Source of the DNA: an uncultured virus (IMG/VR IMGVR_UViG_3300013132_004380)
Lineage: Duplodnaviria > Heunggongvirae > Uroviricota > Caudoviricetes
Direction: 5' to 3' (one strand)
DNA length: 64,000 nucleotides
IMG/VR virus record: IMGVR_UViG_3300013132_004380
Shown: piece after piece, positions 3,406-56,422 of the stretch
Position numbering within the stretch: the first letter of the stretch is position 1
Layout: each line of letters begins with the position of its first letter
Translations under genes and position numbers: made by a program
The notes under the pieces: generated by a model
Databases searched by the model: none
What the model saw: the letters and a program-made list of their open reading frames with translations, nothing else
Told to the model about the DNA's origin: nothing

Positions 3406-4422
3406 TTATTTAGTTTGACGCTCTAAATCCAGGGTAACACAATGAAACCCCCCACCTAGAGTTCTACTATGACGTAGTTCTAATGGAATAACCTCGATGC
3501 CTTTTTTTGATAATTGTTTGTGCAATTCTATTTGTTTACTATCTACAATCACCGTAGTTGGATTTACACTAAACATGTTTAACGCTATCCATTTACTAGC
3601 ATAAGGATATTGATAAAATGATTGTTCTACTACATGGTCAACCCATATTTTATCCCATTTTTTAAAATACTCAGGCAAATTTGATTGATTAATTCTGGAA
3701 GAGTTTAATACTACTAATCCGTCTTTGAGAATAGAAATGGTGCTGTCAATATGGGCATATGCATAGATATTATCTAATACATGTATTTGATATTGTTTGC
3801 CTAGCATATTTTGTAACCATTCTGCTCCTAATCGGTTGCCAGTATTACTTACCAAATAGAAAATATCGTCGTTATGCCTTAAAATGTTTGCTGCATCAAA
3901 CATAGGTTCCTGCTCATTTAATACTACATTCTTATTAAGAACATATGAATCTTGTGTAAGTAATCTTGGCTTAGGCGCAGAAAACCATCTTGCTTTATCT
4001 CGAATAGCTTTAACTTTAATTTTATAATAAGCACTTACTTCAAATTGTCTACTTCTGTAAACCATTGGGGCTTCTATGACCATATCATCAATTACCAACA
4101 AGGTATCTCGAGGACAGTATTTGTACATGCCGTCAGTTTCCCATTCGTGTGTTCTAACAACATGACTGTGATCTAATTCGTTTGGCCTGTAAACTTCAAC
4201 CCCCAATGATCGTAAAGTGTTTGCTAAAATTTCTAAATCTTCGTTAGCTTCGTCGATTACATGTTTGGGGAATGGGCCCTGAGGCATAATTGTTTCTTTC
4301 CAAGCAGTAACTTCTTTATTATAATCAAAAATTTCATCGAATTTAGGAAATTGTGCTCCAGTTGCATCGCCTACTACACAGGATTTAAGTTGATCGTATT
4401 CATTTTTGCTGGAAATTTTCAT
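3406..4422 (-). CDS. amidinotransferase (glycine/inosamine-phosphate amidinotransferase family)
   Basis: NEYDQLKSCVVG, YCPRD, FDAAN, AHIDSTI, LGGGFHCVTLD (Asp-His-Cys triad). Confidence 0.85.
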   Translation of the reverse strand: MKISSKNEYDQLKSCVVGDATGAQFPKFDEIFDYNKEVTAWKETIMPQGPFPKHVIDEANEDLEILANTLRSLGVEVYRPNELDHSHVVRTHEWETDGMYKYCPRDTLLVIDDMVIEAPMVYRSRQFEVSAYYKIKVKAIRDKARWFSAPKPRLLTQDSYVLNKNVVLNEQEPMFDAANILRHNDDIFYLVSNTGNRLGAEWLQNMLGKQYQIHVLDNIYAYAHIDSTISILKDGLVVLNSSRINQSNLPEYFKKWDKIWVDHVVEQSFYQYPYASKWIALNMFSVNPTTVIVDSKQIELHKQLSKKGIEVIPLELRHSRTLGGGFHCVTLDLERQTK

Positions 4423-4937
4423 ATATGGCCAGTGATTTGCAATGTATATCGTGGAGTAAGTCCAATATTTGCTGCCATGTGAGGAGTGTCATAACTCCAA
4501 TATACGCAACAGCCTTTGTTCCAATTTATAAATGGTTCATTGTTATATTCTGCGTAATGACCCGATTGCCAATCTTCTAGAAATACGATAGCTCTACGTA
4601 TGGAATGTTCCTTGCCTTGTAAATTAAAAAGTTTAATATATCTTGTGTACAAATCTTGATGAGTTGGCAAAATTGTGCCAGTATCCATTCTATAGTAACT
4701 AGTCCCAATATCTGACCATCCTAGCATTTCAAAAAATTTAATAAAATGGAAATTCCAGCTTGGTTGGGGGTTGCGCATGTCACACATAACCCCTGTAAAT
4801 GTTCCGCCGTAACCTTGATTCCTCCATTTATGTAAACTTTGTTCATCATTAAATGGTTCATAACTATACTTTAAAGATTTGTATTCCTCATCCCAAAATG
4901 GATCAATACGGATTTTAACGATTTCGTGTGTTGCCAT
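4419..4937 (-). CDS. 2OG-Fe(II) oxygenase (Asp/Asn beta-hydroxylase-like)
   Basis: LPTHQD (HxD), distal H in DTPHMAAN, RYTLQITG. Confidence 0.7.
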   Translation of the reverse strand: MATHEIVKIRIDPFWDEEYKSLKYSYEPFNDEQSLHKWRNQGYGGTFTGVMCDMRNPQPSWNFHFIKFFEMLGWSDIGTSYYRMDTGTILPTHQDLYTRYIKLFNLQGKEHSIRRAIVFLEDWQSGHYAEYNNEPFINWNKGCCVYWSYDTPHMAANIGLTPRYTLQITGHI

Positions 4938-5532
4938 AATGAATGACTTTGACTGTGTCAGTAGAGTTTAATTTGCGCCAAGGATCAACAATAATAGATC
5001 CTGCAGGAATAGTAACATAAGGTTGTGTGTCTACTTGTTCACCAGTATATTCATAAGTAATTTTTCTACTGTGAGCCCATAAAAAGACTGCAGGATTTTG
5101 CACTTCTTGAATTACATCTGTTTGGTCATCTGCTAATGGGTCAACATACTTTATTGCGGCATGGCCGTGTTTAGCCACGTAATAACCCACTAATGTTGAG
5201 TAAGAACCGATACAATAAGGAACGTCAGGTTTATATGCTTTACCATGAATTACAATAGGTAAATCTCCATTGTCTCGACTTACTTCAATTAAAAATTTTG
5301 CAAGGTTCTCTGCCTGTACTTCCCTTGCAGACATGACAGTATCAAACAAATCATACCCAATATTATATTCTTTTGCTAACCAACGCAATGCAATATTATC
5401 CCGTGGATGGCAATTATGCACTACAACACCATTTTTGGCATTAATGTAATATTGATCGTCTTTTATCTCATGGTTTGGTTCTACTTCGATGTTATATACT
5501 TTTCCGTTATAATTGTACTTTTCAATTTTCAT
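4915..5532 (-). CDS. ugd: split-intein C-half fused to C-terminal part of UDP-glucose/GDP-mannose 6-dehydrogenase
   Basis: 40 aa IntC ending VVVHN, then CHPRDNIAL (catalytic Cys motif) and HGKAYKPD. Confidence 0.88.
   Translation of the reverse strand: MKIEKYNYNGKVYNIEVEPNHEIKDDQYYINAKNGVVVHNCHPRDNIALRWLAKEYNIGYDLFDTVMSAREVQAENLAKFLIEVSRDNGDLPIVIHGKAYKPDVPYCIGSYSTLVGYYVAKHGHAAIKYVDPLADDQTDVIQEVQNPAVFLWAHSRKITYEYTGEQVDTQPYVTIPAGSIIVDPWRKLNSTDTVKVIHYGNTRNR
5413..5532 (-). mobile_element. split intein C-fragment (IntC, 40 aa)
   Basis: Block F KVYNIEV and block G VVVHN|C. Confidence 0.9.
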
Positions 5533-6335
5533 AATTCTATTCCTAGGTTAATCAGTTTTTGTTTTGTTAAAATTTCAATTTTTATGTCTGGATGTTGTTC
5601 TTTTAATAGCTCAAATTTTCTGTATTGGATTCGGTACCAGTGATCTGCTTTCGGATCAACGTAGGCGTTCCACTCATATACAAAAAAGTCAGGGTAATAT
5701 GACCTACTAATTCCCGAGTCGTCTATATAGTCGATTCTACCCCTATGACAGTCAAATTTTAGTTGCTGTTTATCGAGCCATTCGATAAATTTCAACTCCC
5801 AGTGCCCTTGTACTCGATATTCTTTTCCCGACGAATGAATGTACGTATGCCATTTACACTTACAATTTGCATCGTTATTTTCTTTATATGCTCCTCGGCG
5901 CCATGCATTAATTGATCCTTGACTAAATTTTTTACGAAACTCAGTATCTTGCATTAACTTAGATCTAGTCTTAGACACTTTCTGTCTAACTTCAGGTCTC
6001 TTCATAGCGTTCTTCTCACCAATATTAACTTTGCCTATCATTGATTCCGATGTACGCTTTCGTTCTGCCGGATCTTCATATCTCCTTTTTTGTGCATTGC
6101 TGTTCTTTTGCCGCCGATCTAGTAAATTATTCTGAACTGCCTGCCAACATCTATTACAAAAATCTTTTGTGAAATTTATGTTAGCTTTCATCTTAATATA
6201 TTGTTTTTTCACTCTATTGTGAATTACACTGCATTGATCACATGTAATCTCTAAGATCAACTGGTTAACTGTTATCTTTTTACCGGTTTTTGAGCTAGTC
6301 CAAGAATATGGTTTTTGGTATTCTTTGTGTATCAT
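5529..6335 (-). CDS. free-standing PD-(D/E)xK (TnsA-like) homing endonuclease with basic NUMOD-like repeats
   Basis: QGHWELKF...YYPDFF...YVDPK; CDQC/CNRC Cys pairs; GEKNAMKRPEVRQKVS; likely start 6335, 5 nt after TAAATA (track start 6377). Confidence 0.75.
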   Translation of the reverse strand: MIHKEYQKPYSWTSSKTGKKITVNQLILEITCDQCSVIHNRVKKQYIKMKANINFTKDFCNRCWQAVQNNLLDRRQKNSNAQKRRYEDPAERKRTSESMIGKVNIGEKNAMKRPEVRQKVSKTRSKLMQDTEFRKKFSQGSINAWRRGAYKENNDANCKCKWHTYIHSSGKEYRVQGHWELKFIEWLDKQQLKFDCHRGRIDYIDDSGISRSYYPDFFVYEWNAYVDPKADHWYRIQYRKFELLKEQHPDIKIEILTKQKLINLGIEL

Positions 6336-6376
6336 ACATTTATTTAGCAAAGAATACAAAATATACATGACAGGCA

Positions 6377-7447
6377 CTAGCTTAACCGATATAACCTGTC
6401 AGATTCAACAATTTCGTCAGCTCTGACAATCACCCGGACGTTGTTACGCAATACTGGAACAAGATGCTCAGGAGTACACTCAAGTAATACTTCGTCGTTT
6501 TCAATGAACCTAAGGATGTTACCGCTATACTCCCGACAAGTTACTTTATCAATCTTTTTCTCATCCTTACTTGTAATGGAATAATTTACAGATTCTATTA
6601 GGTGCACACGATCGTCGAAAGTTTTGTGCAGATTTTCGATAGAAATAATTTCGCCGTCGACCCGAACTGGGAAATCGGGCAACACACAAGCACCTGCGTC
6701 CCCCATTCCTGCAGTCATGTATTTTGGACCCATGATACGCATAGTTGATCTGGCTAAGGCATTAGTTACTACATCAACATTGATGTTACCAATGCGCAAA
6801 GCAAAATCTTGAATCATGTTCACAAGACCCACTTTAGCACTAATAAATGTGTTATAAAAGATTTTAATTGATTCACATTCGTCCCAGGTACCAACTTCGT
6901 ACCTTGGATCATTTTGCATAATTGTTTTATATAAATCTATTAGTTCACCTGCCACTCCTGTCAGACTACCATCTTCAGTTCCAATAATAACCATTTCAGG
7001 ATTTGCCATATCCCATTTAACACTGCCCATGGCAATTAGATAGGGGTTATATAAAAACAAATGTCGTTTGTCCAATAAAGGTACAAACTTTCTTCTAGTT
7101 GTTCCCGGCAAAACTGTGCTAATCAACACAATCTTTTTTTGAGTTCGCGCATACTGATTGACCTTATTAATTGCATCAATTACTGCGTCATGCCCAAAGT
7201 CTTTTGGCTCCATATGGCTACTAGGCACACTACCATCATAACCTTCTGCATGTGGTGTAGGTACAGCAATGAAAATCCATTCGCTTTCATTTACTAATTC
7301 TTCAATTTCACAAACTTTCACTGAGGTGCTCTGCCTTGGGTAAATATCATAGCCTCTGACTTCATGTTTTTCTGCCATAACTTCGGCACAGTCAAGGCCT
7401 AATTTTCCAATTCCAATAAAACCAATTTTTTTTCTAATAACTTGCAT
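6377..7447 (-). CDS. ugd: N-terminal part of UDP-glucose/GDP-mannose 6-dehydrogenase fused to split-intein N-half
   Basis: GIGKLG Rossmann motif, AVPTP, STVLPGTT, KIFYNTFISAKV, GMGDAGA followed by intein Cys1. Confidence 0.9.
   Translation of the reverse strand: MQVIRKKIGFIGIGKLGLDCAEVMAEKHEVRGYDIYPRQSTSVKVCEIEELVNESEWIFIAVPTPHAEGYDGSVPSSHMEPKDFGHDAVIDAINKVNQYARTQKKIVLISTVLPGTTRRKFVPLLDKRHLFLYNPYLIAMGSVKWDMANPEMVIIGTEDGSLTGVAGELIDLYKTIMQNDPRYEVGTWDECESIKIFYNTFISAKVGLVNMIQDFALRIGNINVDVVTNALARSTMRIMGPKYMTAGMGDAGACVLPDFPVRVDGEIISIENLHKTFDDRVHLIESVNYSITSKDEKKIDKVTCREYSGNILRFIENDEVLLECTPEHLVPVLRNNVRVIVRADEIVESDRLYRLS
6380..6688 (-). mobile_element. split intein N-fragment (IntN, 103 aa)
   Basis: Block A CVLPDFPVRVDG; block B LECTPEHLVPV; VRADEIVESD; ends at TAG. 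Confidence 0.9.
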
Positions 7448-8623
7448 ATGATCTCCGTTGATAATTTCTACTACATATTATACAAAAATTTACTTGAACC
7501 TTCAAGATTTTCCGCAGCTTATTTCTATCCGTTTGGCACTACGTCTGCTAATAATCTGGCATTTTCTTGGGAAACTGATTCGAAAATACATTCTGAATAT
7601 TTACATTCTGTTTTATTTTATGATCAAGAACCTTTGTTATGCAAAGAGTTACCAACCCAACATTTTTTAGCATTGCAGAATAAAGTATTCTTTTGTAATA
7701 TACTTGCAAATAGCGAACATTCGATACAGAAAAAAAATCTACTAAAAAAAGAAAATTTTTATGACTGGTATTATTTTTATCACGGATTTGCTGCTCTTTG
7801 TTGGTTCGATGATTTAAAATATTTGCCAAAAGTGGAATACTCTTTTTCAAAAGTATTTATAAACCTTAACAGACTACACACAAAATATAGAAGTTATAGA
7901 ATTAATTTAATAAGCGAATACTATAAAAGAAATTTACTAGATTTTGGGCATATTAGTTTTGCTTCAACAAATAATGAATATGGAACTTGGATCGATGAAA
8001 TATCCGATCCTCATACTTTACTTCCAAAAAATAAGTTGAAAGAAATTGAAAGTAATCTATTTAAAATTTCTTTGCCACTAGTGGTCGATACTTATGATCC
8101 TAAGGGATTTGCAAGTGCAGACTCGGGGCCAGAAGCATTAAAACTTAATCAATCTGCCTTATGGCATGTTGTTAGCGAAACTATTTTTTATCAAGAAAAA
8201 TTACATTTAACTGAAAAAATTTTTAAGCCAATATGCTCAAGACGACCCTTTATTTTAGTAGGGGCAAAAGGTAATCTTGCTTATTTACGAAGTTATGGAT
8301 TTAAAACATTTGGTCGATGGATTTCTGAAGATTATGATAATGAGGAAGATAACGAAAAAAGATTGTTAATGATAGTTGATGAAGTGGAAAAATTATGTAA
8401 ATTATCTTTTCATGAATTAAAATCAATGCATAAAGAAATGCAAGATATTTTAGAATACAATTTTAATCATTTTTATAACGAATTTAAAAAAATTATTGTT
8501 GATGAACTGGTTGATAATTTTCAAGAATGTCTTAAAATTTGGAATCACGATAGATTTAACGAAGAAAAATTGGGATTAGATGCAAATTCTTTACGCAATA
8601 TAAAAAATATATTATTACGATAA
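7448..8623 (+). CDS. putative glycosyltransferase-like protein (GT10/GT-B-like C-terminus)
   Basis: YDQEP; VVSETIFY...LTEKIFKPI...PFILVG...YLRSYGFKTF...YD pattern. Confidence 0.55.
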   Translation: MISVDNFYYILYKNLLEPSRFSAAYFYPFGTTSANNLAFSWETDSKIHSEYLHSVLFYDQEPLLCKELPTQHFLALQNKVFFCNILANSEHSIQKKNLLKKENFYDWYYFYHGFAALCWFDDLKYLPKVEYSFSKVFINLNRLHTKYRSYRINLISEYYKRNLLDFGHISFASTNNEYGTWIDEISDPHTLLPKNKLKEIESNLFKISLPLVVDTYDPKGFASADSGPEALKLNQSALWHVVSETIFYQEKLHLTEKIFKPICSRRPFILVGAKGNLAYLRSYGFKTFGRWISEDYDNEEDNEKRLLMIVDEVEKLCKLSFHELKSMHKEMQDILEYNFNHFYNEFKKIIVDELVDNFQECLKIWNHDRFNEEKLGLDANSLRNIKNILLR

Positions 8624-9152: not shown

Positions 9153-9199
9153 TTTGTTGTTAGGTTGGCCCAAACATACTAAATTAGATAAATAAAAAC

Positions 9200-9703
9200 A
9201 TGAAACATCTACATCATATTATTCCAAAACATATGGGCGGAACAGATGACCCATCAAATTTAAGAGAACTCACGATAGAAGAGCATGCTGAAGCACACAG
9301 AAAGTTATATGAAGAATTCGGTAAACCTCAGGATAAAAGAGCATGGATGGGGTTAGCAAAACTTATGACAGGTAAAGAAATTATTAAGGAAATTTTAACT
9401 TCCCCCAAGAGTGAAGAACATAAAAGAAAGATAAGTGCAGCATTGAAAGGTAAACCAAAACCTTGGCAAATTGGATCAAGACACGGTGCTGGAAATGCTG
9501 GTAAGCCCAAGAGTGAAGAACATAAACGCAATATAGGACTTAGTAAATTAGGAAAAAAAAGAGAACCATTTTCAGAAGAATGGAAACAAGCTCTTAAAGA
9601 TGCAAAGGCGAAAGAACCTTATAAAACTTGCCCACATTGCGGATTAAAAGGAAAAGGACCAAATATGACCCGTTATCATTTTGATAAATGCAACAGGAAA
9701 TAA
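9200..9703 (+). CDS. HNH homing endonuclease with NUMOD3 repeats and C-terminal zinc ribbon
   Basis: HHIIPKHMGGTDDPSNLRELTIEEHAEAH; two PKSEEHKR repeats; CPHC...HFDKC. Confidence 0.88.
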   Translation: MKHLHHIIPKHMGGTDDPSNLRELTIEEHAEAHRKLYEEFGKPQDKRAWMGLAKLMTGKEIIKEILTSPKSEEHKRKISAALKGKPKPWQIGSRHGAGNAGKPKSEEHKRNIGLSKLGKKREPFSEEWKQALKDAKAKEPYKTCPHCGLKGKGPNMTRYHFDKCNRK

Positions 9704-10892: not shown

Positions 10893-12971
10893 TTATTTTG
10901 AAGTTGCCACATAGGTGCCATCCCAATCTGAGGGTAAATGTTTGGCACTCATTTCTTCAATTCGTTCCTGCCAAATTGAATAATAATTGTCCATTTGATT
11001 GTCAAATTCGCCGACTAGTTCCTTACATAATTTCATTGCAGTTCGAAAATTTTGTTTTCTATAATTTAAAAGCATTACTTCGTGTGTTTTTCTGGCTTGC
11101 TGATACTTACGCATGATTATTGTATTTTCCGGCGGAAACAACACGGTATAAATGTTAACTCCTTCTTTTTTTCCTTTTACTGCAATTTTATCTAATTCTA
11201 AAACAAAAAATTCATCTTTTACATATTCAGCAGTTTTCGGACCAAGTACGATTTTGACGCCGTACGGCTTACTTTGACCTTCCAATCGGGATGCCAAATT
11301 GACGCCATCACCCAAGCAAGTATAGTCAAAACGCTGACTACTTCCCATGTTACCAACCACAACGGTATCAGTATTAATGCCAAGACCCATACCAAAAGGC
11401 GGTACACCTTCTGCCGAAATTTCTGCATTAAACGCATCTAAGCTTCCCATCATTTGTAAACCAGTTCGTACTGCATTCTTGGCATGTTCTGCATCATCCA
11501 ATGGCGCATTCCAAAATGCCATTTGAGCATCACCTATATACTTGTCCAATGTACCTTGATTTTCTAATATCTTGGCTGTCATTGCAGTCATATAACGATT
11601 CATTATTTTAGTAAGACCTTGTACGTCTTTTCCGTAATGTTCACTGATGCTTGTAAACCCGCGCACATCAGTGAACATAATAGATAACTCTCTACTGTCT
11701 CCACCTAACTGTAGTAATTCTGGATTTTTCTGTAGTTTTTCAACCATTGCTGGCGACAAGTAAGTGCCAAATTGTTTTTTAATTTGTTGCTTTTGTAAAT
11801 ATTCACTTACAAATTTTATTCCGTATGCGTGAAGACTGACCAATAATAGACCACTAATAATGGCAGTAGCATCAATGAGCCATAAGTAGGATTGATATAA
11901 AGCATAACTGCCATAGCCAAAAGAGAACACCATAACGACAACTGCTGCCAAACCTGCATAAATCCATCTTGTTAATGTTAATAAAATTATTCCCGAAAAT
12001 CCTAAAATAACAATTTCTAGTCCATCTGCGTAATCGGGCCGTTGAATTGTAACTCCGTTTATCATTGTTGCAATAATACCTGCCTGTGCTTCATGAGGGT
12101 ATACAGCGCCTCGACTGGTGGGCACGGGATTAGCCAATCCTGCGGCTGTGACTCCGACTACTACAATAGCTTTGTTGAAATCTTCGGGCAAATTCATCAC
12201 GCTTACGCTCTGAGACGTTTGACTCCAATCAATCCAAATTCTTCCCAATGCATCTGTACTAATGGGTCCGAATTTAGGAATACGCATACGTTCAACACCG
12301 TTTTCATTTAATTTAACTTGTACAGTGGTATCGTCCGCTGCTATCCTCAGTGTTTCCATGGCTAAACTTGGATAAATTTTTCCGTCAACAGTTATTACTA
12401 ACGGCACTCTACGATTTACTCCGTCGACTTCAGGTAATGTATTAACAATGCCAATACCTGCTGCTGCATTTTCTAAAATAGGAATATTAGCAATAAGACC
12501 GGGGTACTGAACTATTCTGTCCATATATTCAGGCGCAAGTACTGCACTGCCGGGATTTCTGGGAGAATTTCTCGTTTGATCACTGGGTGCACTCGGTAAT
12601 ACAACGGGAAAACGTTTTAAAATTTCAGCCAAACGACGATCTTGATTACTTCTATCATTGTTAGGCATAAGAACGTTGAAAACAACAAGACCAGCATTCC
12701 TTCTATACAGATCCTCAATAATTTCAGCATAAATCCCTCGCGGTAAAGGCCATTGCCCATACTGATCTAAAGCTGCTTCGTCTATATTAACTGTAAAAAT
12801 ATTTGAAGGTTCTGTTTCTTTAGATAAGATTAATGTGTCAAAATATCTTAGTCTAACCGATTCGACTAAACTGGGATCATAAACTCTAACCGCAACAATG
12901 ATTGTTAAAGTTATCAGAGCTGTCCATGGACTTAATAGTAATTTTTTAATTTTCTTCATCTGGTCTTGCAC
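10893..12971 (-). CDS. CHASE2-domain class III adenylate cyclase
   Basis: N-terminal TM; CHASE2 (IDEAALDQYGQWPLPR, EVDGVNRRVPL); 3 TM; FTDVRGFT, DKYIGDA, DYTCLGDGVNLASRLE; start may be ATG 12959. Confidence 0.92.
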   Translation of the reverse strand: MQDQMKKIKKLLLSPWTALITLTIIVAVRVYDPSLVESVRLRYFDTLILSKETEPSNIFTVNIDEAALDQYGQWPLPRGIYAEIIEDLYRRNAGLVVFNVLMPNNDRSNQDRRLAEILKRFPVVLPSAPSDQTRNSPRNPGSAVLAPEYMDRIVQYPGLIANIPILENAAAGIGIVNTLPEVDGVNRRVPLVITVDGKIYPSLAMETLRIAADDTTVQVKLNENGVERMRIPKFGPISTDALGRIWIDWSQTSQSVSVMNLPEDFNKAIVVVGVTAAGLANPVPTSRGAVYPHEAQAGIIATMINGVTIQRPDYADGLEIVILGFSGIILLTLTRWIYAGLAAVVVMVFSFGYGSYALYQSYLWLIDATAIISGLLLVSLHAYGIKFVSEYLQKQQIKKQFGTYLSPAMVEKLQKNPELLQLGGDSRELSIMFTDVRGFTSISEHYGKDVQGLTKIMNRYMTAMTAKILENQGTLDKYIGDAQMAFWNAPLDDAEHAKNAVRTGLQMMGSLDAFNAEISAEGVPPFGMGLGINTDTVVVGNMGSSQRFDYTCLGDGVNLASRLEGQSKPYGVKIVLGPKTAEYVKDEFFVLELDKIAVKGKKEGVNIYTVLFPPENTIIMRKYQQARKTHEVMLLNYRKQNFRTAMKLCKELVGEFDNQMDNYYSIWQERIEEMSAKHLPSDWDGTYVATSK

Positions 12972-13197
12972 CTCTCACTGTTGCTCCAGTTTCATCTGCA
13001 GCTAACTTTCTACATTTTTCATTAATCTCACCTTTCATACAAACAGGCAAGATTGTTCTTCTCTGTCGTTCAATTTCTTGGCGTTTGATTAAATTTTCAA
13101 ATGCAGATTTCATCCTATAATTTTGTACCATTAAGTACAAAGACAAAATAGCCAATGTTGCTATTAGTAGTATCAAAACGGCCCTTATGTTAAACAT
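12946..13197 (-). CDS. small membrane-anchored protein
   Basis: N-terminal TM; TATAAATA 5 nt upstream of ATG. Confidence 0.6.
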   Translation of the reverse strand: MFNIRAVLILLIATLAILSLYLMVQNYRMKSAFENLIKRQEIERQRRTILPVCMKGEINEKCRKLAADETGATVRGARPDEEN

Positions 13198-13205
13198 AAG
13201 AGTAT

Positions 13206-14027
13206 TTATAGAAGCATGTCTTCAACTATTTGTTCCATTTTATACTGTGGACTATAACCCAAACTTTTAAGTTTTTCTGTGTTCATAAACATACTATGAA
13301 CCTGTACAATTTTATGAAAATCTGGCGGTTCTATATTATTCATTATACTGGTGCTGTTTAACTTTCGATGTGCATAATCAATTATAGTTCTAAATTTAAC
13401 AGGTACACCATTACCAATGTTATAAATTTCATTAAGGTTGCCTTTGTTCATAACCAAAGCAATGGCTTTAGCAACATCTTTCACGTGTACATAGTCTCTA
13501 TACATATTGCCATTATCATAAATGTTTATGTCTCTATTTGCTTTGAGTTCATTGATCAAATGTTGTAAAGCATTTTTCTTTAAGCTGGCTTTAGGATCTC
13601 CCGGACCAACAACATTGGCTAATCTAAGAATTCTGTAATTGATGTTAAAAACTTTTGAATACGTAATTAATAAATCTTCTGCTGCTTTTTTAGTAATACT
13701 ATAAAACCCAGTGGGTTTACAAATGCTGTTCTCGTTGGCCGGCATATCTGTATCACCGTACACAAACCAACTGCTGACAAAATTGAAAGTAACTTGTTTA
13801 TCTTTGCACTGTTCTAATACACGCATTAATGTAATTAAATTAGTTTCTATATCTAAGTAAGGATTAGTTAACATATTGTAATTACTGATGGTGCTGATCA
13901 GATATAAAATCTGTTCAGATCGTACGGTATAATCATGTCTTTCATTGACAATGCAGTTGGGATTTTGTCTTACAAATTCGGATCCGACGAATCCCGATCC
14001 GCCGAAGACTTGGATAGAATTTTTCAT
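13206..14027 (-). CDS. NAD-dependent nucleotide-sugar epimerase/dehydratase
   Basis: GGSGFVG, VSSWFVYG, YSITK (YxxxK), RDYVHVKDV. Confidence 0.88.
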   Translation of the reverse strand: MKNSIQVFGGSGFVGSEFVRQNPNCIVNERHDYTVRSEQILYLISTISNYNMLTNPYLDIETNLITLMRVLEQCKDKQVTFNFVSSWFVYGDTDMPANENSICKPTGFYSITKKAAEDLLITYSKVFNINYRILRLANVVGPGDPKASLKKNALQHLINELKANRDINIYDNGNMYRDYVHVKDVAKAIALVMNKGNLNEIYNIGNGVPVKFRTIIDYAHRKLNSTSIMNNIEPPDFHKIVQVHSMFMNTEKLKSLGYSPQYKMEQIVEDMLL

Positions 14028-14030
14028 AAT

Positions 14031-14642
14031 TTATTGTTGATTGATTGATGTTGCGCAACCAGCTAATAATCCACAAGATTGAATTATACTATAATGTTGT
14101 GAAATAGAACCTTGTTGTGTTAAATTTAAAGTTGCCGCACCACCTGAATTAGTTAAATTTATAGTGGCACTGTGATTACCGCTGTCTTTTTGATTTGTGA
14201 TAACACTGTGGCCGTTTCCATTAAGGGTTAAATTCAATGAATGCTCTCCAACTCCTTGTTGAACAGATTGTATTGAATTGTTATTTCCCAAAATTGAACT
14301 AATGATAGATTTATTAGGAGAATTTAGTTGGGTAAAATTCAAAAGATTTGAATTTCCTTGCACATTAGATTCTAATATATTTCCCGAAGTTTGATCTGAA
14401 AACATTATGTTGTTATGACCAATAATAGACATTCTTACAGTATTACTGTTAATTTGTGAAATGTTAATTTCGTTACTGTCCCCATTGATCACACTATTTT
14501 GTTGATTGATACCAGTTATGGTGTTGGAGCTGCCAGTTTGATTAATAACAATTTGATTATTGCTGCCTATTTGTTCTATAAAAATAGAATTATCAGCAGC
14601 GTACAAATTGAAAGACAATAATAAAAAAATTAAATATCTCAT
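14031..14642 (-). CDS. secreted curlin-repeat-like protein
   Basis: Signal peptide; repeated IxQxGxxN units; N/Q/S/G-rich. Confidence 0.7.
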   Translation of the reverse strand: MRYLIFLLLSFNLYAADNSIFIEQIGSNNQIVINQTGSSNTITGINQQNSVINGDSNEINISQINSNTVRMSIIGHNNIMFSDQTSGNILESNVQGNSNLLNFTQLNSPNKSIISSILGNNNSIQSVQQGVGEHSLNLTLNGNGHSVITNQKDSGNHSATINLTNSGGAATLNLTQQGSISQHYSIIQSCGLLAGCATSINQQ

Positions 14643-15745
14643 TTTTGTATTAATGTAATTGAAGTACCATTTCCTTGGTTTACTCTATTACTTATAGTGA
14701 TAGAACCTTGTACTTGAACAATTGTTGAATTTTGATTTATTGGCGTAGTGACGCATTGTTGATCACCGCCACCATCTCTGCACAAAGTGACGTAAGGTTC
14801 ATCTTTTACTGCGATAACTCCGCTGCTTCGTCTGTAATCTGGTAGAACTGTATCAATTTCATCTAGCATACGTTCATTCAATGCGTCCATAACTATGTCA
14901 AATACATTATTAAGAAAACTGTTATCTAAAAAAGTATAACTAAGTCTATCTTGCCATATTTGTGCTTGAGCTTTATCAAGTGCATTTTCTAAATCTTTTA
15001 CAGCCAGAAAATCTACATCTAAAAAATTCTTTTGTGTTTCTTGTTTTTCAGCAGAATCTTTTAATTCACGTGGGGGACTTAAAATTAACATGTTTCCTAT
15101 TGCGTCTTCGGACAAATTTAAAATTACAGGAGTTCTTGGGGGAGAATTTCTACTATCGACCCTTGTTGCTTGAAAAGGCTGATTTAATATAACTATACCT
15201 GCATCTGTTTCAATTTGAATTTGACCTGTTACGCAGTTTGATTCTATGTCTGATTTAGTTCTTGAAGGCTTGTTATCGGGACAGCTTGGTAATAAAATAA
15301 TTGTGCTTTGACCTAATTCTTCTACTGTTGCTGTAAAATCGGTGCCTCTGACAGAGATAGTAGCCGTCGGAGTTTTAAGTGCAACATTCTGTGGGGATTT
15401 TTTTGCAATCTGTCCGCTGGCATATCTAACGGTACCAATAGCAATTTTAGCTCCTAGTTTACCAGTGTTCGATTTAGGATCATAAACAAAATCATCAATT
15501 ACTAATCTGCTGTTTTCATTGACTTGAACTTTTGTGTTATCTTCAAAGGTTATCCCCACTTTTCCCTGTTGAGTTTTGATGCTGTCGGCCATCTCCACTG
15601 TTTGACCTTTTTTCCCCTCCAACTGTTGATTTTTTCTCTGAATGCTGGCTGGACTGTTCAACTGTTCTGTTACTGTTCCTATCCCTGCTTTGCAGTTCAA
15701 GGATATAATCACCAAGAGTAACACAATTGCCCTGCATATGATCAT
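14639..15745 (-). CDS. FecR-domain periplasmic protein
   Basis: Signal peptide; DSIKT...ITFEDNTKVQVNENSRL, TPTATISVRGTDF. Confidence 0.85.
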   Translation of the reverse strand: MIICRAIVLLLVIISLNCKAGIGTVTEQLNSPASIQRKNQQLEGKKGQTVEMADSIKTQQGKVGITFEDNTKVQVNENSRLVIDDFVYDPKSNTGKLGAKIAIGTVRYASGQIAKKSPQNVALKTPTATISVRGTDFTATVEELGQSTIILLPSCPDNKPSRTKSDIESNCVTGQIQIETDAGIVILNQPFQATRVDSRNSPPRTPVILNLSEDAIGNMLILSPPRELKDSAEKQETQKNFLDVDFLAVKDLENALDKAQAQIWQDRLSYTFLDNSFLNNVFDIVMDALNERMLDEIDTVLPDYRRSSGVIAVKDEPYVTLCRDGGGDQQCVTTPINQNSTIVQVQGSITISNRVNQGNGTSITLIQK

Positions 15746-15747
15746 CT

Positions 15748-16530
15748 TTAATTTGAGGTTGTTATAGAAAAAGTATTACCCGATCCAGCACTCAATATAT
15801 TTACTGTAGTATCAATGGTTCCGCTTTGATTAATTGTGGTATTATTACTAGATCCTGTATAATTCATAACCACACTATGACCAGATACTCCACCTCCCGA
15901 TTGTGTTATACTGGTAATATTTGTTGCACCCACAGTAGTTATATTAATTGTTCCTTTGTCACCTGTCAAGTTTAGTGTAGTTTCGTTTCCACCTCCACCT
16001 GTTTGACTTATTGTGGTAGTAGTGTTATTGGCATTGATGGTGCCCACTAATTGATTATTATTTCCTCCACTGGTTGTTACTGTCATAGTATTATCAGAAC
16101 CTAAAATGTTTAAATTCATTATAGATCCATCACCAGTCTGATTTAAATTTAAGGTAGTACTTGCATTCGAACCTGCACCATCATTGTTTAAATTTAAAGT
16201 TGCAATTGCATTATTACCGGTATTTACATAAGTGATGTCTGTGGGACTGCTACCATTTGCAGTTGTAGTTACTACTCCCATATTTAATATGTTCCCACTA
16301 CCAATTTGTTGTATATCAATATTAATTGCATCACCTGTAAATTTAGCAGGATTGGTGTTACCTGTTCCTACTCCTTGTATACTACGAACTCTATTACTTG
16401 CACCATCTTGAAGAATTGTAATAGTTGCATTATCTCCTGCTTGATCAATATAGATAGTGTTATCAGATGCATGAACAGGTAAACTTACTGCAGCAATTAA
16501 TGAAATTAAAAATTTCATTGGTTTTATCAT
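15748..16530 (-). CDS. secreted curlin-repeat-like protein
   Basis: Signal peptide; DNTIYIDQAGDN, QDGASN, QQIGSGN, QTGGGGN beta-solenoid repeats. Confidence 0.7.
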   Translation of the reverse strand: MIKPMKFLISLIAAVSLPVHASDNTIYIDQAGDNATITILQDGASNRVRSIQGVGTGNTNPAKFTGDAINIDIQQIGSGNILNMGVVTTTANGSSPTDITYVNTGNNAIATLNLNNDGAGSNASTTLNLNQTGDGSIMNLNILGSDNTMTVTTSGGNNNQLVGTINANNTTTTISQTGGGGNETTLNLTGDKGTINITTVGATNITSITQSGGGVSGHSVVMNYTGSSNNTTINQSGTIDTTVNILSAGSGNTFSITTSN

Positions 16531-17333
16531 TTTTTATCCTTTCCGTTTTCTTTAAATTCCCAAACTTGTTTTCTTTGACCTTCTTTAATTAGTTCGATAA
16601 CTGCTGCTTCAATAGCAGTTTTTACAGCATAGGTGCCAGGTTCATTTATAGTAATTCCCGACTCAGATTCAAATGCTTTTGTCCCCAAATCAAAAAACTT
16701 TAAAGTACTAAAACTATCTGCAGTACTAAGAATGGTTTTTTGTACAGTAACGCTGACTAACACTTTTCCGGTATTGACACTCACTGCTCTTAAACTCACT
16801 GTAACAATATCTTCACTATATTGAGTTTGTGCGCCGATGCCTAACCACCTTGCTCCAGCGCCTCCCGATTTTGTACTAGTGTCAAAACCTATTATGCCTC
16901 CCTCAATTATTAATCCCGCAAATTGCATTGGCATTAATGGTTTAGCATTAACTCCTTCATATGCTTCACGCATTTGACGTATTATCAATCGTTCTTTAGT
17001 TAAGTTATCTAACCCAACACGTTCTACTACTTCAAACCAACGACCATTACCTGCATCTTGTAATGCACGAATCAGAAAAGTTTCAGCCCCTTGAGTAACT
17101 GCAGTGCTTAAGCTGGCAATATTACTTTGACTCCTTCTTTGACCAGTTTTATCTAAAAAACTGTAAACTGCGACGCTGATAGGCTTTTGAGATGAAGGAG
17201 CAGGAACATTTTCCAATTCTCGTTGCATCATGGATTTAACTGTGACAGGCAAACTGTTTAATTGTCCTGCATTTTGATGAATAGCGCATCCAGATAAACC
17301 AGTTATTAATAACATTAGAAATAGTGTTTTCAT
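16527..17333 (-). CDS. csgG: curli secretion channel lipoprotein CsgG
   Basis: Lipobox LSGC; VAVYSFLDKTGQR, STAVTQGA, WFEVVERVGLDNLTKERLIIR. Confidence 0.92.
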   Translation of the reverse strand: MKTLFLMLLITGLSGCAIHQNAGQLNSLPVTVKSMMQRELENVPAPSSQKPISVAVYSFLDKTGQRRSQSNIASLSTAVTQGAETFLIRALQDAGNGRWFEVVERVGLDNLTKERLIIRQMREAYEGVNAKPLMPMQFAGLIIEGGIIGFDTSTKSGGAGARWLGIGAQTQYSEDIVTVSLRAVSVNTGKVLVSVTVQKTILSTADSFSTLKFFDLGTKAFESESGITINEPGTYAVKTAIEAAVIELIKEGQRKQVWEFKENGKDKK

Positions 17334-17335
17334 AA

Positions 17336-17791
17336 TTAAAATTGAAACTGTCCTAAAGGTACAACCACTGTGGTATTGACACCTGGTCCAGTTACAATTA
17401 ATTTGATAGTGCCATCTAGGCTATTTTTTTCCCATGCTATTTGAGTATTTGTTTCGGTATCAAAAGTAAAGATTCCACTATTACTTCCACCTTCTTTAAA
17501 CATAGCAGTAGCAAGATTTTGACTTATTTGAGCATAGACTCTGGATTCTAAATTATTTAAAAATTTATTGATATTACTGTTTTGCTCTGCAGTCTTGATC
17601 TTATCTAACTCTGCTTGCAATTTGTCTGCAATTGTTTTTTGTCTTACTGTTTCTTGGTTTTCGATAGTTAATACATGACTACTGAACCCAATGCCGTTAA
17701 AACTGGGGTTTTTAAATGTGAAATCAGGTAAAGGTGCAGCAAATATTGCTGAACACACTAAACCTGACATAATAATTACTAATTTTACCAT
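17336..17791 (-). CDS. csgF: curli assembly component CsgF
   Basis: Signal peptide then FTFKNPSFNG; FLNNLESRVYAQIS; adjacent to csgG. Confidence 0.8.
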   Translation of the reverse strand: MVKLVIIMSGLVCSAIFAAPLPDFTFKNPSFNGIGFSSHVLTIENQETVRQKTIADKLQAELDKIKTAEQNSNINKFLNNLESRVYAQISQNLATAMFKEGGSNSGIFTFDTETNTQIAWEKNSLDGTIKLIVTGPGVNTTVVVPLGQFQF

Positions 17792-30949: not shown

Positions 30950-32086
30950 TTAATCATGAACCTCTAGTTTCCATCCTTTCGTTTTACCTTTTTTTGGTAT
31001 TCCCCATTGGGCTTTTTGTATTTGCAATTTCAACGTACTCCAACTAAGATCATGTTCTTTACAAAAAATAGCTGCTTCATTGCCCCATAATATATATTCT
31101 TTGCCATCTGGGGAGGTTAATTTATATTGTTTACTATTTTTATTTAATTGTCCCGTTCTTAATTTTGCTTTGTCGGCAATTAGTTTTTTAGTTGAATCTT
31201 TTTGTTTTCGACCATACATTGGATTATTAACACCCGAGGTCAGTTCACTTAATTTTTTTCTTGTTTCCGGAGTATGTTGTTTAGGACCGTAACCACCACG
31301 TTGCTTTTGTAATTCTGAACGCAATTGCTTTTGTTGCTGTGCCTTATCAAAACCGTAGATTTCTTCATAATTTTTCCCCTTATGATTAGGTGGTCGATTA
31401 TCTTCGCACACATTGGTTAAGATTCCGAAATATTCATATCCCTTTCTACCATAATGTTTTATCATGTCCCTTTCAATTTTATATGCTAGTTGTTCGTCTA
31501 TTATATTCTCTGCTATATATTCTATTTTTGGTTCCAAACCTTCGTTCCGTATAGCACGAATTTTATTGTCTTTGTATAGATTTTGAACTTTTGCAGATTC
31601 AAATAAATGAGTCTGTGCTCTGTTGCCTTTTCCTTTGCCGATATAAAATGGCAAATTATTTCTCGGATCAATTAATTGGTACACATAATACATAATTTCA
31701 ATCTCCTCTTGATATTTAGCAAGAGACTGAAAATAGTAGTTAGGTAAGACATTATTAAGTGAATGTTTATCAATCACACCTATAATATTATATTCTCTAC
31801 TATCTTTATACGGCATTATATCTATGTATTCTGTTCCATTGTGCCAAATACTGTGTTTGATAGCTTGTAGATCATTAAAACCTTCAACAAAATAAAAACA
31901 TAATATTTGATGTCCGCCATATATTGAAACATAGTTTCTCACACTATTATGACAATCATTATAATCATATGCAGATTGTGAGTTAACGTTGACTGCACCT
32001 ATCCATCTACAATCTAAATGTTTAGCAAATGCCATAATGTTATTATTAATTTTAGGAGGAATTGCCCACGTCATGATTTGGATCAA
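30950..32086 (-). CDS. GIY-YIG/NUMOD3 homing endonuclease with an N-terminal Cys-His-Asp domain; internal start at 31693
   Basis: YVYQLIDPRNNLPFYIGKG, LTN, HTPETRKKLS, NPMYGRK; internal TAAATA and GAGGAG before M132. Confidence 0.8.
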   Translation of the reverse strand: MIQIMTWAIPPKINNNIMAFAKHLDCRWIGAVNVNSQSAYDYNDCHNSVRNYVSIYGGHQILCFYFVEGFNDLQAIKHSIWHNGTEYIDIMPYKDSREYNIIGVIDKHSLNNVLPNYYFQSLAKYQEEIEIMYYVYQLIDPRNNLPFYIGKGKGNRAQTHLFESAKVQNLYKDNKIRAIRNEGLEPKIEYIAENIIDEQLAYKIERDMIKHYGRKGYEYFGILTNVCEDNRPPNHKGKNYEEIYGFDKAQQQKQLRSELQKQRGGYGPKQHTPETRKKLSELTSGVNNPMYGRKQKDSTKKLIADKAKLRTGQLNKNSKQYKLTSPDGKEYILWGNEAAIFCKEHDLSWSTLKLQIQKAQWGIPKKGKTKGWKLEVHD

Positions 32087-55498: not shown

Positions 55499-55585
55499 AA
55501 TAATCTCCTTTTGTATAAAGAAAAATGCTAGTCACGATATTTGCCGTATCCACTAGCTCTAACGATTATTAAGGAATCATCAGCA

Positions 55586-56422
55586 ATGTATTTACAAAAC
55601 AAATATACTAATTGGTATAATAACATTATTGCTAATGCAATGTCAAGGATATTACCAAAAGAAACATATACCGAAAAACATCATATTATACCAAGAAGTT
55701 TGGGCGGTGATAATTCAGACGAAAATCTGATTAGATTGACCGCCCGGGAACATTTTTTATGTCATTTGCTATTACCAAAAATGCTCAGTGGTGTTGCTAA
55801 AAGAAATATGACTTTTGCTATTTGGTCCATGTTAAACAGGGACCATTCTAGACAACGATCTAGACACAAAGTTAATTCACACACATATAGCCGTCTCAAA
55901 ATTCAAATCGCTCAAGCTTCTTCTGAATTACACAAAGGTAAGTCTAAATCAGAAGAAACTAAAAGGAAAATTTCTGAAAAGGCAAAAGGACGAGTTTCAC
56001 CTAATAAAGGAAAGCCAATGACTGCCGAACAACGAGAAAAACTTTCAATTGCACATAAAGGCAAAACTATTTCTCCCATCGTTGTTGCAAAGATATTAGA
56101 ATCACGAAAACATTACACACACTCAGAAGAAACAAAACAAAAAATAGGCAGAGCACACAAAGGAAAAACTCAAATAGTCTCCGAAGAAACCAAACAAAAA
56201 ATTTCTAATTCGCTGAAAGGTAGACCAAATCATAATAAAGGAAAACCTGCCTACAACTTGGGAATTTCTCATACAGACGAAACTATAAAAAAGTTGCAGT
56301 TAGCAGCGCAAAATAGAGAAAGACTTACTTGTATTCATTGCGGTAAATCTGCACCTAAATGTAGCTTTACACGATGGCACGGTGATAATTGCAAACACAA
56401 ATATTCAACTCTGCCACTCTAA
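55586..56422 (+). CDS. HNH homing endonuclease with NUMOD3 repeats, antisense to neighbours
   Basis: EKHHIIPRSLGGDNSDENLIRLTAREHFLCH; several HSEETKQKI repeats; CIHC..HGDNC. Confidence 0.9.
   Translation: MYLQNKYTNWYNNIIANAMSRILPKETYTEKHHIIPRSLGGDNSDENLIRLTAREHFLCHLLLPKMLSGVAKRNMTFAIWSMLNRDHSRQRSRHKVNSHTYSRLKIQIAQASSELHKGKSKSEETKRKISEKAKGRVSPNKGKPMTAEQREKLSIAHKGKTISPIVVAKILESRKHYTHSEETKQKIGRAHKGKTQIVSEETKQKISNSLKGRPNHNKGKPAYNLGISHTDETIKKLQLAAQNRERLTCIHCGKSAPKCSFTRWHGDNCKHKYSTLPL

Follow-up and report, generated by a model that had tools for sequence, protein, structure and literature searches.

A predicted split intein and a TnsA-like nuclease gene at the catalytic cysteine of a viral UDP-glucose dehydrogenase-family gene

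The window analyzed here is a stretch of 64,000 nucleotides from an uncultured virus (IMG/VR record IMGVR_UViG_3300013132_004380), which, by its ribonucleotide reductase, DnaB-like helicase and TAAATA motifs, looks like a large T4-like phage. In it, a gene of the UDP-glucose dehydrogenase (UGD) family is broken directly before its catalytic cysteine by a composite element formed by a split intein and a nuclease gene. The first half of the host gene (N-extein) is fused to an N-terminal intein fragment (IntN), a free-standing putative homing endonuclease gene follows, and a C-terminal intein fragment (IntC) is fused to the second half (C-extein), i.e., the layout of a fractured gene, on one strand and at one locus. 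The features are presented in Table 1. Close copies of the locus come from lake and freshwater metagenomes.

Table 1. Features of the fractured locus and of the adjoining operon genes, in window positions.
Feature	Position	Strand	Description
Composite element (split intein + nuclease gene)	5413-6688		1276 bp, directly before the catalytic Cys codon
N-gene	7447-6377	-	356 aa (amino acids) = 253-aa UGD-family half + 103-aa IntN; reads ...GMGDAGA/CVLPDF...RLYRLS, stop
N-extein	6689..7447	-	Residues 1-253, UDP-glucose/GDP-mannose dehydrogenase family, end GMGDAGA; Pfam PF03721, PF00984; PHROG 9148, E 2e-61
IntN	6377..6688	-	103 aa (6688-6380) + stop; Cys1, block-B T72-x-x-H75; by TIGR01445 and alignment of 11 alleles
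Nuclease gene	5529..6335	-	268 aa, free-standing putative homing endonuclease
Nuclease domains			N-terminal CxxC...CxxC and helical region; C-terminal TnsA/T7-endonuclease-I-like PD-(D/E)xK (E180, D216, D227, K229)
C-gene	5532-4915	-	205 aa; reads MKIEK...VVVHN/CHPRD
IntC	5413..5532	-	40 aa, ends His39-Asn40; TIGR01443 above cutoff
C-extein	4915..5412	-	165 aa + stop; first residue is the catalytic Cys (+1 nucleophile), CHPRD; PHROG 9148, E 1e-19
T4-type late promoter motif CTAAATA	6341..6347	-	5 nt upstream of nuclease ATG
RNA hairpin	6318..6357	-	10-bp perfect stem around late promoter motif and nuclease AUG; -9.1 kcal/mol, z -2.9
AGGA, Shine-Dalgarno (SD)-like site of C-gene	5541..5544	-	Within the nuclease's last codons, 8 nt before IntC ATG
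Candidate sigma-70 promoter TTGAAG-17-TATAAT	7477..7505	-	30 nt upstream of N-gene start; 10/12 consensus
Fe/2-oxoglutarate-oxygenase-like gene	4419-4937	-	172 aa; Atlas structure match to Asp_Arg_Hydrox cluster, TM 0.84
Amidinotransferase gene	3406-4422	-	338 aa; inosamine-phosphate amidinotransferase 1bwd, E 3e-91

The three open reading frames (ORFs) occupy three different frames, and 847 nt separate the two host-gene halves. In PHROG 9148 (UGD), the N-gene aligns to profile positions 2-263 and the C-gene to 261-357. The exteins sum to 253 + 165 = 418 residues, the length of the uninterrupted (empty) relative L005, whose phage is collinear with the window and whose identity is 94% to the N-extein and 82% to the C-extein; this agrees with the spliced product length given in a preliminary description of the stretch. 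The anatomy claimed there, with a 103-residue IntN, a 40-residue IntC, separate ORFs in different frames and a nuclease between them, is confirmed by the ORFs and by the TIGR and PHROG profiles. For the nuclease, ATG 6335 is the most likely start, rather than an upstream GTG; this gives it the same length as the database gene call P0029.

The intein fragments present a complete class 1 signature (C1, T72, H75, H39, N40 and C+1). Among eleven alleles, H39, N40 and T72 are found in 11/11 and H75 in 10/11; in the IntN alignment the rows L107 and L108 begin one codon late, and both do carry Cys1. IntC scores 18.6 against TIGR01443, whose cutoff is 15.6, and IntN matches TIGR01445 slightly below its cutoff (23.5 bits for 24.5, E = 8e-5). 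The IntN profile also matches the solved inteins 2jmz, 9hth, 2cw7 and NrdJ-1. When IntN and IntC were modeled as a complex, a score of 0.94 was obtained (best control 0.01), with an agreement among runs of at least 99% of contacts and partner pLDDT (predicted local distance difference test) values of at least 90; this mark is reached by 116 of 157 solved pairs and by 2 of 215 mismatched ones, and a pass may stem from likeness to solved inteins. A close IntN profile found 26 proteins, each of them a UGD N-half with IntN at its end. The Cys of L005 at the position of the break aligns with the Cys of GFGGSCFPKD in the solved UGD 3vtf, which supports the proposed identity of the +1 nucleophile with the catalytic Cys. 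By its sequence, the element is a class 1 naturally split intein, for which trans-splicing is predicted. Enzyme activity would be expected to need trans-splicing, as had also been proposed.

The nuclease is, by its sequence and predicted structure, a canonical PD-(D/E)xK enzyme of the TnsA/T7-endonuclease-I type with a putative homing function; the restriction-enzyme-like fold bears the catalytic set E180, D216, D227 and K229, in keeping with the earlier assignment. Among 107 homologues, E180, D216 and K229 are invariant and D227 is at least 90% conserved. The only significant PDB matches of the profile are T7 endonuclease I (E = 5e-8). The predicted structure has a pLDDT of 92.7, and comparison of its last 120 residues yielded TnsA as the best fold match (Z 9.0, root-mean-square deviation (rmsd) 2.8, 110 residues), with I-Bth0305I (Z 6.2, rmsd 3.1, 80 residues) and Vsr (Z 6.0) both middling and below it. 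A Foldseek search with the model returned nothing at E <= 0.001. At E <= 0.01, 81 of the 107 homologues match DUF7487 and 39 match Phage_endo_I, while the window protein lies below the curated cutoffs. A Cys-rich and helical N-terminal region of about 150 residues is extra to the TnsA/T7-endonuclease-I fold. Two other identities were considered and discarded: the EDxHD motif (Vsr-like) is absent from alignments of 11 and of 107 homologues, and no GIY-YIG or Vsr-type Pfam family was found among the 107 homologues.

The T4-type motif before the nuclease gene agrees with the late promoter of its own that the preliminary description assigned to it. The MTAAATA motif is rarer in the window than expected by chance (26 sites versus 53.5), yet seven of the 26 stand 5-6 nt before an ATG and seven more 15-29 nt before a gene. 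In the window's subfamily, 12 of 17 distinct split loci have the motif at most 20 nt from the nuclease ATG. Judging by the promoter spacing, the late mRNA of the nuclease is probably leaderless. The hairpin at 6357-6318 was equaled in 3 of 200 shuffles; in its short form (-2.9 kcal/mol) the AUG is unpaired, and a transcript begun at the late promoter cannot form it. The same layout of promoter and hairpin was described for I-TevI, segB and Aeh1 mobE (PMC2988022).

As claimed, the stop codon of the nuclease gene overlaps the IntC start codon, as ATGA (5532-5529). Among distinct split loci, this overlap is present in 22/32, and the SD-like site in 21/30 (loci with a called start). Some alleles, such as L100, have no nuclease/IntC overlap, and three loci (L243/L440, L300/L444 and L302/L446) retain just a 3' remnant of the nuclease gene, which bears the IntC start signals. 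Given these remnants and the AGGA site of IntC itself, the start signals of IntC come from within the nuclease gene, whose translation is seemingly not required. Hence, the required translational coupling to the nuclease that had been suggested is not supported. A terminator scan between the two halves found none. A hairpin is seen over the IntN stop codon in the window (6368-6402, z -1.51), in L006 (1720-1752, z -2.35) and in L100 (3914-3948, z -3.88), with a U-run after it in L006 and L100 that resembles a weak terminator; should this hairpin stop transcription, expression of the C-gene would rely on the late promoter.

We consider it very probable, from the sequence and the models, that the locus carries a mobile composite element, i.e., a split class 1 intein with a TnsA-like homing endonuclease gene, which combines trans-splicing with homing. 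The two precursors would be made separately, and IntN and IntC would fold together as one Hint domain. Trans-splicing would then proceed through an acyl shift at Cys1, attack by the +1 Cys and cyclization of the Asn, to yield the 418-residue enzyme with its catalytic thiol freed. The hairpin would hold the nuclease off early and the gene's own promoter would make it late, upon which the nuclease would cleave an uninterrupted copy of the gene in a co-infecting phage, at the Cys codon or immediately beside it, and repair would copy the whole cassette.

Four other explanations were weighed. To the idea that assembly frameshifts broke a single continuous ORF we assign a negligible chance: none of the 26 close IntN homologues is contiguous, and L001 (99.93% identical over 5914 nt), which may share the window's sample, has the same breaks, as do contigs from other studies and dozens of diverged loci. 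Contigs were available from four runs in four studies; one X2 contig covers the whole stretch with 12 letters differing, an X4 contig spans 4400-6491 with three differences, and X3 and X5 cover the stretch piecewise. With L001 and these contigs agreeing on it, the split is real and not an assembly error, contrary to a concern expressed at the outset. Joining at the level of RNA or of the ribosome, by a self-splicing intron or by translational bypass, would lead to a contiguous cis-intein precursor. Bypassing was named as an alternative by Dassa et al. (PMC2677866) and contiguous forms of this intein exist, but 847 nt lie between the halves, the length (840-871 nt) and frame of this gap vary among alleles, and IntC has its own ATG and SD-like site, which together make such joining extremely improbable, although no search for an intron by RNA families was made.

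The halves could also join non-covalently into a working enzyme without splicing, like those of Aeh1 NrdA, the intein pieces serving as a dimerization module. An intein-less fractured NrdA gives a precedent (PMC2677866) and the complex model predicts that the Hint halves bind; nevertheless, this is highly improbable, given that the splicing residues are all kept across alleles, that nine full-length proteins have a member of this intein family in cis at the same position, and that the unspliced catalytic Cys would sit inside the intein active site, peptide-bonded to Asn40. Finally, the locus may be a decaying relic with poor splicing or a dead nuclease, its enzyme being dispensable or complemented by the host. 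Such decay is seen in the nuclease remnants of the three relatives above, and at 6749, in the N-gene, the X2 contig shows a gap of two bases that no other contig has. However, all three ORFs of the window are full length with intact catalytic residues and are repeated in contigs of other studies, relatives are under purifying selection, and the operon neighbors are intact, so that we regard decay of this copy as very unlikely.

Several points weigh against the mobile, trans-splicing element proposed here. One is the score of IntN just under the TIGR01445 cutoff. The non-synonymous rate (dN) is below the synonymous rate (dS) for IntN, nuclease and IntC in 9/9 pairs of relatives, which is in favor of the element, but the window is in none of these pairs, and several dS values are saturated. 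The fragments lack clear opposite net charges (-6 and -1); both being acidic, strong charge steering is not to be assumed, and binding strength and value as a tool are unreadable from sequence. The start-hiding hairpin, clear in the window, is suggested in L096 and L104 (z -1.95 and -1.42) and is weak or absent in most other folded relatives; as a conserved feature it was rejected, not being general among the relatives folded. On the extein tree, monophyly of the five nearest split alleles is not rejected (p-AU 0.089, approximately unbiased test). A polyphyletic origin of the split alleles is therefore not significant, and homing is not proven by this tree. In favor of the element, on the other hand, the N-extein of the window resembles empty L005 (94%) more than it does any of the nearest split alleles (79-86%).

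To place the element among its relatives, loci related to the host gene, to the nuclease and to the intein were collected. Among the best 80 of 510 related viral loci, inspected for interruption at the catalytic Cys, 74 present an uninterrupted GD(A/S)GA-C-HPRD and six have IntN at the same Cys. The 159 nuclease-anchored loci comprise 53 complete split alleles, 12 partial ones, 21 in which an intact UGD without intein is directly followed by a free nuclease (19 classified automatically; L149 and L157 added by eye), one unclassified, and 72 more distant nuclease matches where no UGD or intein was detected. Split alleles occur in two very different UGD subfamilies, GAC-HPRD, which is the window's, and the short canonical GGxC-FPKD, whose IntC profiles match each other with a probability of 99.7. 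At a 95% cut, 28 distinct split pairs remain. A wide IntN profile gave 150 representative matches, 147 of which were re-scored: 42 are UGD N-halves ending in IntN, 10 are UGDs interrupted at the catalytic Cys by a contiguous mini-intein (nine full length, 147-167 residues), one is a UGD with a LAGLIDADG intein at the same Cys, and 94 are non-UGD proteins.

No split allele was found among 50,697 GenBank phage records, where the nuclease matches are of two types, both distant; of these, L472 was inspected, and no UGD gene adjoins it on the strand of the match. Empty alleles of the subfamily are present in the cultured Synechococcus phage Bellamy and Pelagibacter phage HTVC008M. The best 80 of 305 prokaryotic UGD loci are all uninterrupted and without this nuclease. 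The collaborative state, in which a free nuclease would follow a gene with a cis mini-intein, was not found among 35 viral loci with HN/C(F/L)PKD, nor was any contiguous member of this intein family; these loci consist of 23 split or partial alleles, nine long contiguous inteins, two other mini-inteins and one other protein.

In a nuclease tree rooted on seven distant homologues, free copies are basal and in-intein copies form two supported clades, one of which contains a free copy; a single origin of the in-intein nucleases is not rejected (p-AU 0.077). In the intein tree (28 split versus 9 cis forms, outgroups and P0285 excluded), split and cis forms interleave with six changes, and their separation is rejected (p-AU 0.002). 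Few nuclease entries together with many flips between split and cis forms fit repeated nuclease loss with re-fusion of the halves, which we infer from the two trees; repeated hopping of the nuclease into new mini-inteins would be an alternative compatible with them. Near-identical free nucleases stand behind UGDs of different clades (L149 and L234), and one tight UGD clade (L152, L150, L232, L277) holds split, free with changed motif, and free with canonical motif states. Both patterns can be read as signs of recent movement.

The sequence around the catalytic Cys differs with the state of the allele. The count was made in the short canonical family, to the exclusion of the HPRD subfamily and of prokaryotic copies; 116 loci of viral or metagenomic origin had 150 or more N-extein residues, shorter ones being dropped, and thinning at 95% identity left 90 of them. 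Gly(-2) or Pro(+3) is changed in 14/17 free-nuclease alleles, as against 4/60 empty and 1/13 split alleles (Fisher p = 2e-9 and 1e-4). In the subclade where free copies are most abundant, picked after the tree had been seen, the values are 11/14 versus 4/16 (p = 0.009). Prokaryotic copies have the motif intact in 78/80. Over 77 conserved columns, Pro+3 is the one from which free-nuclease alleles deviate most (8/17) and Gly-2 is tied second (6/17), with a mean of 1.1, whereas the catalytic Cys, Lys and Asp deviate in none. Given that these two positions stand out while catalytic residues are unchanged, the change is no general decay. At least seven different substitutions are involved (Gly-2 to Leu, Ser or Lys; Pro+3 to Cys, Val, Ile or Ser). 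At the DNA level, a common core GG-N10-CC is centered 1 nt from the intein site, and it is intact in 60/60 HPRD empty, 57/63 viral canonical, 77/79 prokaryotic and 3/20 free-nuclease alleles.

These values suggest that host alleles of free nucleases are self-immune via the motif change, which we rate at about an even chance, and that the target is centered on the Cys codon. The split alleles may keep the normal active-site motif because, as proposed, intein insertion itself destroys the target. Against self-immunity, the rows are related, the free alleles and most empty alleles come from different queries, three free alleles retain the core, and its symmetry may merely mirror the Gly and Pro codons. 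A phylogeny-corrected independent-pairs test of free nuclease and changed motif was not significant: of five pairs on supported branches, 1.9 go the same way and 0.0 the opposite way (median p = 0.5).

A reversible life cycle of a split intein at this one site can be drawn from the observed states, although we give all its steps jointly slightly less than an even chance. The TnsA-like nuclease family would first have been free behind the intact gene, aimed at the codons around the catalytic Cys (core GG-N10-CC), and the host gene would have yielded the near-invariant residues Gly-2 or Pro+3, so that the nuclease spares its own DNA. The nuclease would then have entered a mini-intein at the same site once or twice, gaining immunity without damage to the motif and splitting the intein. 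The cassette would have spread over UGD subfamilies, with repeated nuclease decay re-fusing the halves into cis mini-inteins.

Regarding the host enzyme, comparison of L005 with 3vtf and 7kws places the catalytic Cys in G-x-C-x-P-x-D, and the upstream KxxxN and STxxPG motifs are present. NPYLIAMG of L005 aligns to NPEFLREG, and the glutamate of NPEFL is replaced in 125/125 loci of the subfamily (Tyr in 118, Phe in 7). We take this glutamate to be Glu161 of the human enzyme. In human UGD, Glu161 hydrolyzes the thioester of Cys276 (PMC3265891). The N- and C-halves score below the NCBIfam cutoffs. The dehydrogenase gene heads an operon with the Fe/2-oxoglutarate-oxygenase-like and inosamine-phosphate-amidinotransferase-like genes, which overlap and have the identical order in L002 and L005-L008. 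Because of the replaced Glu and of these operon partners, the enzyme may act on something other than UDP-glucose and yield something other than UDP-glucuronate. Of the earlier designation as UDP-glucose dehydrogenase, the UGD family stands (PF03721, PF00984, PHROG 9148), but as to UDP-glucose itself it is a family label for a putative substrate. A 391-residue gene of no Pfam family (window 7442-8623) lies head-to-head with the dehydrogenase gene with zero gap, which puts the operon promoter inside it. The sigma-70 candidate found there is supported by position alone, since such matches in the region are no commoner than expected by chance (28 versus 31.8).

Some related proteins and other parts of the window deserve mention. 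In L094 (1836-3968), P0019 and P0025, the same N-gene holds a second contiguous intein of about 350 residues, KxFYN/C...QGN/TFIS with a +1 Thr, adjoining the conserved Lys/Asn motif; these precursors hence need one cis and one trans splicing. P0208 and P0212 consist of a polymerase-exonuclease-like N-half, IntN, an in-frame YxPDF (TnsA-like) nuclease domain and a stop, possibly a split intein in another host with the nuclease fused to IntN. P0168 and P0183 are 158-residue stand-alone Hint-like proteins near this intein family, without Cys1 and with a His-Thr or His-Val end, possibly domesticated or splicing-dead copies. P0192, P0201, P0202 and P0209, among the nearest non-UGD matches, are PolB-like N-halves ending in a related IntN. 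The window has a second free-standing nuclease at 9188-9703 (+), with HNH and NUMOD3, 167 residues and an ATAAATA-5 nt-ATG start, for which L005 has no DNA match. At 10893-17791 lies a CHASE2 adenylate/guanylate cyclase gene (Pfam), whose neighbors we take by resemblance to be curli/CsgG-type secretion parts and a FecR-like protein. Judging from translations, ORFs at 30950-32086, beside ribonucleotide reductase genes, and at 55541-56422, beside a helicase, resemble free-standing homing endonucleases.

In the literature searched, which excludes most subscription papers and InBase, no paper was found that treats a split intein in UGD or reports a TnsA-like nuclease within a split intein, and the available passages of PMC12707363 and PMC5867893 contain no mention of a UGD intein. 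As far as that literature goes, the suggested novelty of a split intein in a sugar-nucleotide enzyme is supported for this host, whereas the architecture was known (Dassa et al. 2009) and contiguous UGD inteins are catalogued. The locus extends that architecture by a host from a glycan pathway and by a third nuclease family. It also comes with a diverse natural set of split inteins (28 distinct pairs) with a typical split site. Furthermore, the gene-breaking model of 2009 was pieced together from different genes, while here five states are found at one site: empty, cis mini-intein, split, decayed (nuclease remnant), and free nuclease with intact gene. By their sequences, these resemble several steps in how split genes arise and are undone. 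The motif changes beside free nucleases yield a concrete target prediction, which makes split-intein origin, its reversal and nuclease-driven active-site change testable.

The closest known systems are the fractured genes of Dassa, London, Stoddard, Schueler-Furman and Pietrokovski 2009, i.e., gp41-1, gp41-8, NrdJ-1, NrdA-2, IMPDH-1 and others (PMC2677866). Shared with them are the order of host N-half with IntN, short gap (41 nt in the window, 27-51 in theirs), free-standing nuclease, and IntC with host C-half on one strand; fragments of 103 and 40 residues (88-105 and 33-54 in theirs) with the break at the usual endonuclease position; the five catalytic residues; a hairpin with a TAAATA-type late promoter; the nuclease 3' end lying over the IntC start; and, for NrdA, an intein site also directly before a catalytic Cys. 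In contrast, their hosts are gp41, IMPDH, DnaE, NrdA, NrdJ, ligase, terminase and one unknown, while that of the window is a nucleotide-sugar dehydrogenase; their nucleases are GIY-YIG or Vsr-like, while the window's is a TnsA/T7-endonuclease-I-like canonical PD-(D/E)xK enzyme; and the overlap is 4 nt compared with 6-69. The window thus falls outside their range of nuclease types and of DNA synthesis and repair hosts, which are examples and not a strict criterion. The preliminary view that fractured genes are known mainly from replication and nucleotide genes needs qualifying, given these hosts already include the metabolic dehydrogenase IMPDH.

Contiguous UGD inteins share the host family: ten are reported in Euryarchaeota by Novikova et al. 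(PMC4760082), and they are also described there in PMC2874743. The LAGLIDADG ones in P0285 and L461 occupy the same GGx/C(F/L)PKD site, the archaeal inteins of PMC4760082 being likened by host family only. These inteins differ in splicing in cis, in their in-frame LAGLIDADG domain, and in their distance from this intein family (long branch). I-Bth0305I, of the EDxHD type, is likewise a phage homing nuclease in two parts, the C-terminal one resembling a restriction enzyme, and has a pseudopalindromic target beside the insertion site, a target that for the window family is only predicted (PMC3239194). The window nuclease differs in lacking EDxHD, in the higher TnsA score, and in its significant PDB sequence matches, which are to T7 endonuclease I only.

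Tn7 TnsA, T7 endonuclease I (1t0f, 1m0d, 3cae) and DUF7487 share with the window nuclease the fold and the E...PD...(D/E)xK set, although TnsA is part of a transposase and T7 endonuclease I resolves junctions, neither being a homing enzyme, and both are without its N-terminal region. Intronless or collaborative homing (PMC2988022) also involves a free-standing nuclease beside an intact target, which is 'pre-adapted' to a nuclease-less splicing element and later merges with it. However, the splicing elements there are introns, while here an intein is split by the merger, and the free state appears to cost amino-acid changes in the active-site motif.

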